Part shown: positions 2,198-2,410 of the stretch, in pieces | How positions within the stretch are numbered: position 1 is the stretch's first letter | Layout: every line of letters starts with the position of its first letter | Source of the DNA: an uncultured Acidobacteriota bacterium | GTDB taxonomy: Bacteria > Acidobacteriota > Thermoanaerobaculia > Multivoradales > UBA5704 | Length of the DNA: 64,000 nt | Assembly: GCA_963761805.1 (NCBI GenBank) | Contig: CAVXIV010000014.1 | Coordinates: 33,217-97,216, forward strand | Direction: 5' to 3' | The notes under the pieces: model-generated | The model's input: the letters and a program-made list of their open reading frames with translations, nothing else | The model's database searches: none | What the model was told of the DNA's origin: nothing | Program-made: the position numbers and the translations under genes

Positions 2198-2410
2198 ATG
2201 AAGAAGAGGAAGCTGACCCTTTCCCGTGAGACCCTGCGCAACCTGGAAACCGGCCAGATGGCCCGTGTGGCGGGCGCGTCAGGATGCCCGACCTGCGCCG
2301 ACCAGACCTGCGGGAGCTGCTACGGGAGCTGCTTCGACACCTGCACCAACGACCCGTCTTGCTGGGGCTCCTGTGGCGGCACCTGCGAGTACAGCTGCCA
2401 CTGCATCTGA
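2198..2410 (+). CDS. RiPP-like precursor peptide: GG-type leader plus cysteine-rich core
   Basis: 70 aa with a strong RBS GAAGGAGG 7 nt upstream. The leader MKKRKLTLSRETLRNLETGQMARVAGASG resembles bacteriocin/rSAM-target double-glycine leaders (KLxLxKETLxNL ... GG/AG). The core CPTCADQTCGSCYGSCFDTCTNDPSCWGSCGGTCEYSCHCI has 13 Cys in 41 aa. There is no Sec signal. Confidence 0.6.
   Translation: MKKRKLTLSRETLRNLETGQMARVAGASGCPTCADQTCGSCYGSCFDTCTNDPSCWGSCGGTCEYSCHCI

Follow-up and report, generated by a model that had tools for sequence, protein, structure and literature searches.

Introduction

Prochlorosins of marine cyanobacteria arise from scattered precursors (ProcA) that share one conserved double-glycine leader, of the Nif11 type, and carry hypervariable cores, and they are processed in trans by the LanM enzyme ProcM. 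The classical double-glycine register, as seen in substrates of peptidase-containing ATP-binding cassette (ABC) transporters (PCATs), consists of G-G/A at positions -2/-1 and hydrophobic residues at -4, -7, -12 and -15. As for core motifs, TCHC is the intertwined-ring motif of nisin rings D/E, and microcin B17 is heterocyclised at G-S-C sites. Here we analyzed pep1, a small gene in a 64-kb stretch of DNA from an uncultured Acidobacteriota bacterium (contig CAVXIV010000014.1; the whole stretch is hereafter called the window), which a first-pass annotation had put forward as a leader-dependent precursor resembling those of peptides that are made by the ribosome and modified after translation (RiPPs). 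We conclude that pep1 is most likely an orphan RiPP-type precursor, in which a double-glycine leader of known type is joined to a new and unusually Cys-dense core. Judging from sequence comparison, it forms a pair with a second such precursor on the other side of a tRNA-Leu gene, and is one of thousands of stand-alone leader-sharing paralogues.

Two sets of described systems lie close to this gene. The LxLxKx5L...GG leader has been described for class I lanthipeptide precursors (LanAs) of Bacteroidetes, which a C39 protease often accompanies (Walker et al. 2020, PMC7268733). For the tha and the gene clusters of Thermoanaerobaculia, described in 2026, ThaM was reported to make lanthionines, and the GMC oxidase ThaO/TheO to make a thiazole from Gly(-1)-Cys1; TheO tolerates varied cores, and two unexplained small open reading frames (ORFs), labelled as putative lanthipeptides, border the tha cluster (PMC13083261). 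In the literature, we found no description of the orphan peptide family to which pep1 belongs.

Results

The pep1 gene and its leader

The ORF exists and translates exactly as the first-pass annotation had quoted it. The features of the gene are as follows.

2198..2410, plus strand: pep1 precursor gene, 70 amino acids (ORF and translation, NF038153 match, homologues, dN/dS)
2198-2278, plus strand: pep1 leader, residues 1-27, MKKRKLTLSRETLRNLETGQMARVAGA, with predicted cleavage after G26-A27
2279-2407, plus strand: pep1 core, residues 28-70, 43 residues with 11 Cys and 11 Ser/Thr
2183..2192, plus strand: Shine-Dalgarno site GAAGGAGGAG, read directly; its AGGAGG core stops 7 nt before the ATG
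2137..2167, plus strand: conserved 5' untranslated block AAATTTGGTTCACGGCCGAACGCTGTAGCGG, from upstream regions aligned across unrelated contexts
2444..2480, plus strand: GC-rich hairpin with a U-run, resembling an intrinsic terminator (-29.1 kcal/mol, z -5.4)

The N-terminal 27 residues are assigned, from their motif and register, as a double-glycine leader of the LxLx(K/R)x5L type. Specifically, the curated NCBIfam model NF038153 ("lant_leader_L1a", class I lanthipeptide) gave 23.5 bits on residues 1-26, above its cutoff of 22, and the objection raised with the first-pass annotation, that the leader might match no RiPP leader model, therefore falls away. The motif reads L6-x-L8-x-R10-x5-L16, with R in place of K, and is followed by a G26-A27 end, where most homologues have GG. 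With G-G/A at -2/-1, pep1 places V24, M21, L16 and L13 at -4, -7, -12 and -15, and hydrophobic residues occupied these four positions in 97%, 93%, 94% and 89%, respectively, of 121 family members aligned on G-G/A. When 20 leader-sharing peptides were examined, 18 matched NF038153 and five also matched TIGR04149 (both at E<=0.1), the model type that the first-pass annotation had suggested; pep1 itself gave no TIGR04149 match at E<=10. Pfam returned nothing significant for pep1, pep2 (the second precursor, described below) or their relatives, apart from weak helix-turn-helix noise on the leader.

Conservation around and within the gene was marked. The first protein search returned eight pep1 homologues of 69-71 amino acids in which all 11 Cys residues are invariant, and the ratio of nonsynonymous to synonymous substitution rates (dN/dS, Nei-Gojobori) was 0.15-0.67 in 28 of 28 pairwise comparisons of eight pep1-type genes. 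In the upstream alignment of eight homologous loci, GGAGGAGA in the Shine-Dalgarno region was invariant or nearly so. Approximately 100 nt of upstream sequence travels with the pep1 homologues and is kept in unrelated contexts (L001, L002, L005, L006 and L007; such numbers denote loci of relatives); it includes the shared block TTTGGTTCAACGGCCAAACGCTGTAGCGG, and in more distant loci a promoter-like pair, TTGAGC-17-TAWCCT, stands 5' of this block. The conserved block may be a binding site for a common regulator. A riboswitch or a small RNA in the 5' untranslated region was rejected, as the block had no Rfam match and no covarying structure. On the 3' side, none of 200 shuffled sequences formed a hairpin as good as that at 2444-2480, and in L003, L004 and L005, too, the orthologue is followed by an equivalent hairpin; given this terminator-like element, pep1 is taken to be a monocistronic cassette. 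An exact look-up of the pep1 protein found no record of a called gene with that product, and a tblastn search of plasmids found no pep1 relatives. Altogether, the signals and the conservation mark pep1 as a genuine gene, transcribed independently.

The core and the leader-sharing family

The core holds 11 Cys residues, instead of the 13 counted in the first-pass annotation, and nine of the 11 are directly preceded by Ser or Thr (p = 1.5e-4). The numbers of Ser/Thr and Cys are exactly equal in both precursors (11:11 in pep1 and 5:5 in pep2). This composition is shared by the family; Ser+Thr was equal to or greater than Cys in 112 of 121 cores, the Cys count was odd in 72 of 116 (62%), and Ser or Thr stood directly before Cys in 46% of cases where the composition predicted 25.5% (p = 2e-29); the reverse dyad C-[S/T] was not enriched in the family cores. 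Taken together, the odd Cys counts, the sufficiency of Ser+Thr and the directional dyads argue against a purely disulfide-bonded peptide, and the composition of pep1-type cores would fit a chemistry that uses one Ser/Thr per Cys.

G[S/T]C occurs four times and GC once in the pep1 core, which has a C-terminal SCHC (SCPC in relatives). At the leader/core junction, G[GA]-S-G-C is invariant in the pep1 family, with a Ser-Gly spacer between G[GA] and the Cys. The four G[S/T]C triplets could serve as alternative azole sites. When a core-only profile was run against 1.84 billion representatives, matches were confined to pep1's own peptide family, indicating that larger proteins do not contain the core as a module. 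AlphaFold gave pep1 a pLDDT of 49.6 with no autonomous fold beyond a short leader helix, which made the model unusable for a fold search; such an absence of a predicted fold is in keeping with a precursor, as opposed to a folded domain.

Of 3,945 candidates for a profile built from 20 full-length leader-sharing peptides, 2,612 small proteins matched at E<=10. Among the matches listed, the majority had no source name, and the named ones were labelled Thermoanaerobaculia or Acidobacteriota. Some had been named "class I lanthipeptide" by the Prokaryotic Genome Annotation Pipeline (PGAP), and one "TIGR04149 family". These proteins have hypervariable cores, which measure 29 amino acids at the median and contain 18% Cys, 14.5% Thr and 11% Ser (25% Ser+Thr). 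Tandem copies of leader-sharing peptides occur in L011, L012, L016 and L031, and the typical neighbours of family genes are housekeeping genes, e.g., hemB.

Maturation in trans and the rival explanations

For the function of pep1, we favour a reading in which the leader is recognised in trans, the core is crosslinked between Ser/Thr and Cys, and a C39-type transporter cleaves and exports the peptide at G26-A27; we give this sequence-derived reading about an even chance of being right. The leader would be read by machinery encoded elsewhere in the genome. Before export, core Ser/Thr residues would most likely be dehydrated and then crosslinked to Cys, and a shift-by-one pairing of S/T(k) with Cys(k+1) would yield approximately 10 overlapping rings (i+3 to i+7), leaving Cys30 of the invariant Gly-Cys free and ending in SCHC. 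A C39-peptidase ABC exporter would cut after G26-A27 and export the core. The logic would be that of prochlorosins, i.e., one unlinked enzyme set acting on many scattered substrates.

Several results weigh against maturation of this kind. The NF038153 score of pep1 exceeds the cutoff by just 1.5 bits. TIGR04149, a leader model for RiPPs modified by radical S-adenosylmethionine (rSAM) enzymes, matches the same leader type in relatives; since the leader thus matches both lanthipeptide and rSAM-RiPP models, it does not by itself fix the chemistry. TIGR01847, the model for bacteriocin-type GG signals, was not reported for pep1 at E<=10, although HMMER filters may drop very weak matches. Furthermore, a Pfam scan of essentially all ORFs of at least 190 amino acids in the window found no LanB, LanC, LanM, radical-SAM, YcaO or C39-ABC gene, in agreement with what had been stated in the first-pass annotation for radical-SAM, LanM, YcaO and C39-ABC. 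What the scan did find was a TonB receptor, an MMPL transporter, an NHL-repeat protein, CheB, kinases, response regulators, a MacB/FtsX permease, and RND, CusB and TolC metal-efflux components. The 10 kb past the left edge of the window, as represented in L003, held no maturase, only a TonB receptor, a YfiR-like protein, a kinase and a regulator. Approximately 15 independent contexts of relatives were likewise devoid of Lan enzymes, radical-SAM, YcaO and C39-ABC genes, with L005 as the sole exception, and six LanM clusters other than that of L005 (L035, L036/L037, L038/L039, L041/L042 and L043) had no peptide with an LSRET leader within 10 kb. Hence, of the leader-dependent RiPP-like precursor originally proposed, the leader is borne out by the NF038153 score above cutoff and by the double-glycine register, the core is indeed rich in Cys, Ser and Thr, and the expected maturase or exporter appears neither in the window nor in these contexts. 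In particular, LanB and LanC encoded with the precursor were found neither in the window nor in the ~15 contexts of relatives, and membership in the class I lanthipeptides is therefore not established.

Two types of neighbouring genes were considered as partners and rejected, namely those for CHAT-TPR proteins (near L006 and L019) and for Ser/Thr kinases (near L012 and L032). Both are common genes of Acidobacteria, and their adjacency to the peptides was inconsistent.

The first alternative is that pep1 is an unmodified double-glycine peptide, either class II bacteriocin-like or signalling, which is exported by a distant PCAT and whose core forms disulfides or binds metal. The leader register of pep1 suits PCAT substrates, no modifying enzyme stands near any of the ~15 loci, ordinary Sec-secreted Cys-rich small proteins are found among the neighbours, and unmodified GG-motif peptides exported by PCATs are known in Bacteroidales (the bacteroidetocins, as they are cited in PMC10352776). 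However, the odd Cys counts of pep1 (11), pep2 (5) and 62% of the 116 cores would be unexpected for disulfides alone, and the enrichment of [S/T]-C together with the near-universal excess or parity of Ser+Thr over Cys would be left unexplained. In addition, there is no confident fold, and no PCAT is nearby. We regard this explanation, the main rival, as unlikely.

The second alternative holds that pep1 is a radical-SAM RiPP, TIGR04149-like with thioethers of the ranthipeptide or sactipeptide kind, or a YcaO-dependent azol(in)e peptide modified at G-S-C or G-T-C. The TIGR04149 matches of five among 20 leader-sharing peptides, the PGAP name of one relative, and the G[S/T]C and GC motifs of the pep1 core point in this direction, as do weak matches of pep1 to models of Cys-repeat rSAM targets and of heterocycloanthracins (E 0.1-0.2). 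On the other hand, pep1 has no TIGR04149 match at the E value given above, the model matches lie far under their cutoffs (for the heterocycloanthracin model TIGR03601 on pep1, 12.4 bits vs a cutoff of 35), and neither the window nor any of the contexts examined contained an rSAM/SPASM or YcaO gene. The chance that this explanation is correct appears slim.

The third alternative is that pep1 is a substrate of a tha/the-type LanM and GMC oxidase, by which Gly29-Cys30 would be converted to a thiazole, with or without lanthionines made by LanM. It arises from L005, a locus in a soil Acidobacteriota metagenome-assembled genome (MAG), where the pep1 orthologue lies ~370-600 bp upstream of a LanM (DUF4135 + LANC_like) cluster with the architecture described in PMC13083261. 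This cluster (L005 10568-16495) is complete and of the "the" type. Its LanM is followed by a Cys-rich, TheA-like precursor (...ITGGCCEAATV...), the leader of which is mersacidin-type, and then by a Gluconate_2-dh3-like gene and a GMC oxidoreductase. The invariant G[GA]SGC of the pep1 family recalls the GGC site of thiazole formation, and the reported tolerance of TheO for varied cores and the unexplained small ORFs bordering the tha cluster would be in keeping with such a role. Against it, the cognate precursors have a different AW[RK]D leader, of the mersacidin/lichenicidin type (found in L005, L035-L039, L041 and L043), to which the pep1 leader is unrelated, and a Ser-Gly spacer separates G[GA] of pep1 from the Cys. 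In L005, the peptide has retained a promoter-like region and a hairpin of its own and is therefore a unit separate from the LanM cluster. As a general partner of the pep1 family, the LanM cluster was rejected because the link was seen in one of seven clusters and is not conserved; the LanM link thus remains a minority hypothesis, and we consider it very improbable for pep1. As a separate observation, the four-gene "the"-type cassette recurs in L035 and L036/L037 in other surroundings, which are partly mobile-element-like (toxin-antitoxin systems, relaxase, TraG).

Lastly, the view that pep1 is a chance ORF or non-coding region, to which the frequency of spurious ORFs in high-GC DNA and the lack of a called gene in the exact look-up lend some ground, is effectively refuted by conservation, and is countered by the Shine-Dalgarno site, the terminator, dN/dS below 1, the invariant Cys, the curated model match and the homologues in unrelated contexts.

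pep2 and its secreted partner

A second precursor gene, overlooked in the first-pass annotation, lies on the opposite strand. The features of this side of the locus, and of the tandem array downstream of pep1, are as follows.

1694..1858, minus strand: pep2, second precursor, 54 amino acids, MKKTAKKLALSRETVRFLVDRSLEDAQGG (leader) and SIWSNCYCYYTLYSNCNCENTRECW (core), with 5 Cys and 5 Ser/Thr in the core
1314..1694, minus strand: Cys-rich secreted protein with a Sec signal, 126 amino acids, ~20 Cys (ORF and translation)
1965..2048, minus strand: tRNA-Leu(TAA), between the divergent pep1 and pep2 (ARAGORN and Rfam)
2532..2978, no strand: tandem array, 447 bp, 21.2 copies of a 21-bp unit (TRF, Tandem Repeats Finder)

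The pep2 leader is of the same type as that of pep1, and the gene has its own AAGGAG site. Its NF038153 score was 16.6 bits, under the cutoff of 22. Homologues of pep2 are P0046 (87%), P0093 and P0039; the gene was found in the syntenic locus L040 and not in L003. The stop codon of pep2 overlaps by 1 nt with the ATG of the gene at 1314-1694 (TGATG), and the same overlap occurs in L040, so the latter gene is predicted to be translationally coupled to pep2. The first-pass annotation had described the 1314-1694 gene as a divergently placed neighbour of pep1; its Sec signal and Cys-rich composition were confirmed, and its position is in fact that of a downstream, overlapping partner of pep2. The secreted protein is a possible partner of pep2, and its gene occurs without pep2 in L003. 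Neither Pfam nor NCBIfam gave a match for this protein. Small secreted Cys-rich ORFs were also seen in the same neighbourhood of relatives (L003 ~10278-10514, minus strand; L040 4377-4631, minus strand).

Neighbouring elements and synteny

MAGs that carry the label Thermoanaerobaculia or Acidobacteriota are the window's relatives. Both L003 (~90% nucleotide identity) and the metagenome contig L040 (~89%) are syntenic with the window. The tRNA-Leu gene noted in the first-pass annotation is indeed adjacent to pep1, as a lineage-specific neighbour: it adjoins pep1 in the window, L003, L004 and L040, and not in L001, L002, L005, L006 or L007. Its adjacency was dismissed as an integration signature, being only lineage-specific, and no direct repeats matching the 3' end of the tRNA turned up. 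Directly 3' of the pep1 stop codon, the 18 nt at 2416-2433 are a 17/18 inverted copy of the tRNA-Leu 3' end (T-arm and acceptor, 1969-1986), which could be a relic of rearrangement or a product of chance (rough expectation ~0.02). In L004 (9426-10436, compared with 1965-3529 of the window), the pep1 cassette, consisting of promoter region, gene and terminator, is inverted relative to tRNA-Leu and a gene for a 123-aa secreted protein.

The repeat array claimed in the first-pass annotation is present downstream of pep1, although "giant" was a generous term for 447 bp. It consists of two mutually inverted halves (arms 2535-2728 and 2809-3002, 71%), with a CCGGAAGCTTCCGG-like palindrome in every unit. 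The array, an insertion unique to the window, is missing from the syntenic L003 and L040, and no copies were found elsewhere in the window or in 40 loci. The array appears to be a recent insertion, and a part for it in the peptide system was rejected on account of its absence from L003 and L040. Given that pep1 carries its conserved upstream sequence into unrelated, tRNA-free contexts, the gene behaves as a self-contained cassette, beside which the tRNA and the array stand as incidental neighbours.

Other observations concern the remainder of the window and one relative. Comparison of 756-1271 of the window with L003 5417-9250, L040 4853-8611 and L004 10365-13820 revealed that ~3.4 kb has been lost from the window, corresponding to a CheB-CheR-PAS-HisKA-HATPase-receiver hybrid kinase of 1,250-1,277 amino acids in the relatives; what remains is a stand-alone receiver domain of 132 amino acids at 756-1154. 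Two mirrored efflux systems of the heavy-metal type occupy 42584-51594, where the RND pump at 45480-48587 (plus strand) is broken across three reading frames, either as a pseudogene or through assembly frameshifts, and the convergent pump at 48520-51594 (minus strand) is intact. In the metal-efflux region, two near-identical small ORFs with signal-peptide-like N-termini (MFPLQLIKENPMKKAFLLCFSLLLLGFAT...AASCCK/R) stand 7.5 kb apart at 55338-55562 and 62910-63137, both on the plus strand. In L025 (3246-7639), downstream of an AraC regulator, a different Cys-rich peptide of 50 amino acids (...MYGCDYACCWIDGGCYDCIN) is located directly 5' of genes for a Peptidase_M50-like protein, a 666-aa TPR protein and a 310-aa protein; this cluster may be an unrelated small-peptide system.

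Discussion

If pep1 and its relatives are matured in trans, Thermoanaerobaculia would provide a second case of prochlorosin-like combinatorial peptide biosynthesis, outside cyanobacteria. Mining tools based on gene clusters, such as antiSMASH, would miss thousands of products because the precursors do not stand beside their enzymes. With [S/T]-C dyads so unusually dense and directional, the scaffold is predicted to be heavily crosslinked, and the leader-sharing family constitutes a concrete set of substrates with which the leader-binding enzyme and the protease can be sought. One promiscuous maturase for the whole family, if found, would sharply raise the significance of the system; if the peptides are unmodified, they would be an ordinary secreted peptide family. 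A far-reaching extension would be that Thermoanaerobaculia hold a genome-wide library of self-contained cassettes, each with its own promoter, 5' untranslated region and terminator, a shared double-glycine leader and a hypervariable core of [S/T]-C dyads, which one highly promiscuous and unlinked enzyme set, either the LanM/GMC-oxidase thiazole machinery or undescribed, matures into hyper-crosslinked "ladder" peptides of a type not yet described, with ~10 overlapping thioether rings and an N-terminal thiazole. As a whole, we consider this extension improbable.

Compared with known systems, pep1 shows resemblances of different depth. At the motif level only, its SCHC resembles the TCHC of nisin, and its G-S-C and G-T-C triplets resemble the sites of microcin B17; there is neither homology nor a cognate enzyme in either case. 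With double-glycine bacteriocins and other PCAT substrates (Havarstein 1995; Bobeica 2019; bacteroidetocins), pep1 shares G-G/A at -2/-1 and the hydrophobic register, whereas no PCAT, immunity or accessory gene adjoins it and its core composition suggests modification. The rSAM-RiPP precursors of TIGR04149 have a very similar KLxLxKETL...GG leader, and some relatives match that model, but pep1 does not, nor was a radical-SAM partner found near family members in the contexts examined. The Bacteroidetes class I lanthipeptide precursors (NF038153; pinensin family; PMC7268733) have in common with pep1 the leader model, the LxLx(K/R)x5L motif, the G-G/A end and a core rich in Ser, Thr and Cys. Unlike pep1, they stand in clusters that include LanB and LanC and in many cases a C39 protease; pep1 further differs in its Acidobacteriota origin, in R for K, and in a much larger number of Cys, placed in [S/T]-C dyads. 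ThaA/TheA (PMC13083261) come from the same class, Thermoanaerobaculia, and resemble pep1 in their Cys-rich cores and possibly in a Gly-Cys at the leader/core junction, where pep1 has a Ser-Gly spacer, whereas the leader family of pep1 is different, the cluster link was seen in one of seven cases, and the window has no such cluster. In the organisation of the family as a whole, the comparison is with prochlorosins: although its leader is unrelated to theirs, the pep1 family likewise consists of scattered genes with a shared double-glycine leader and hypervariable cores.

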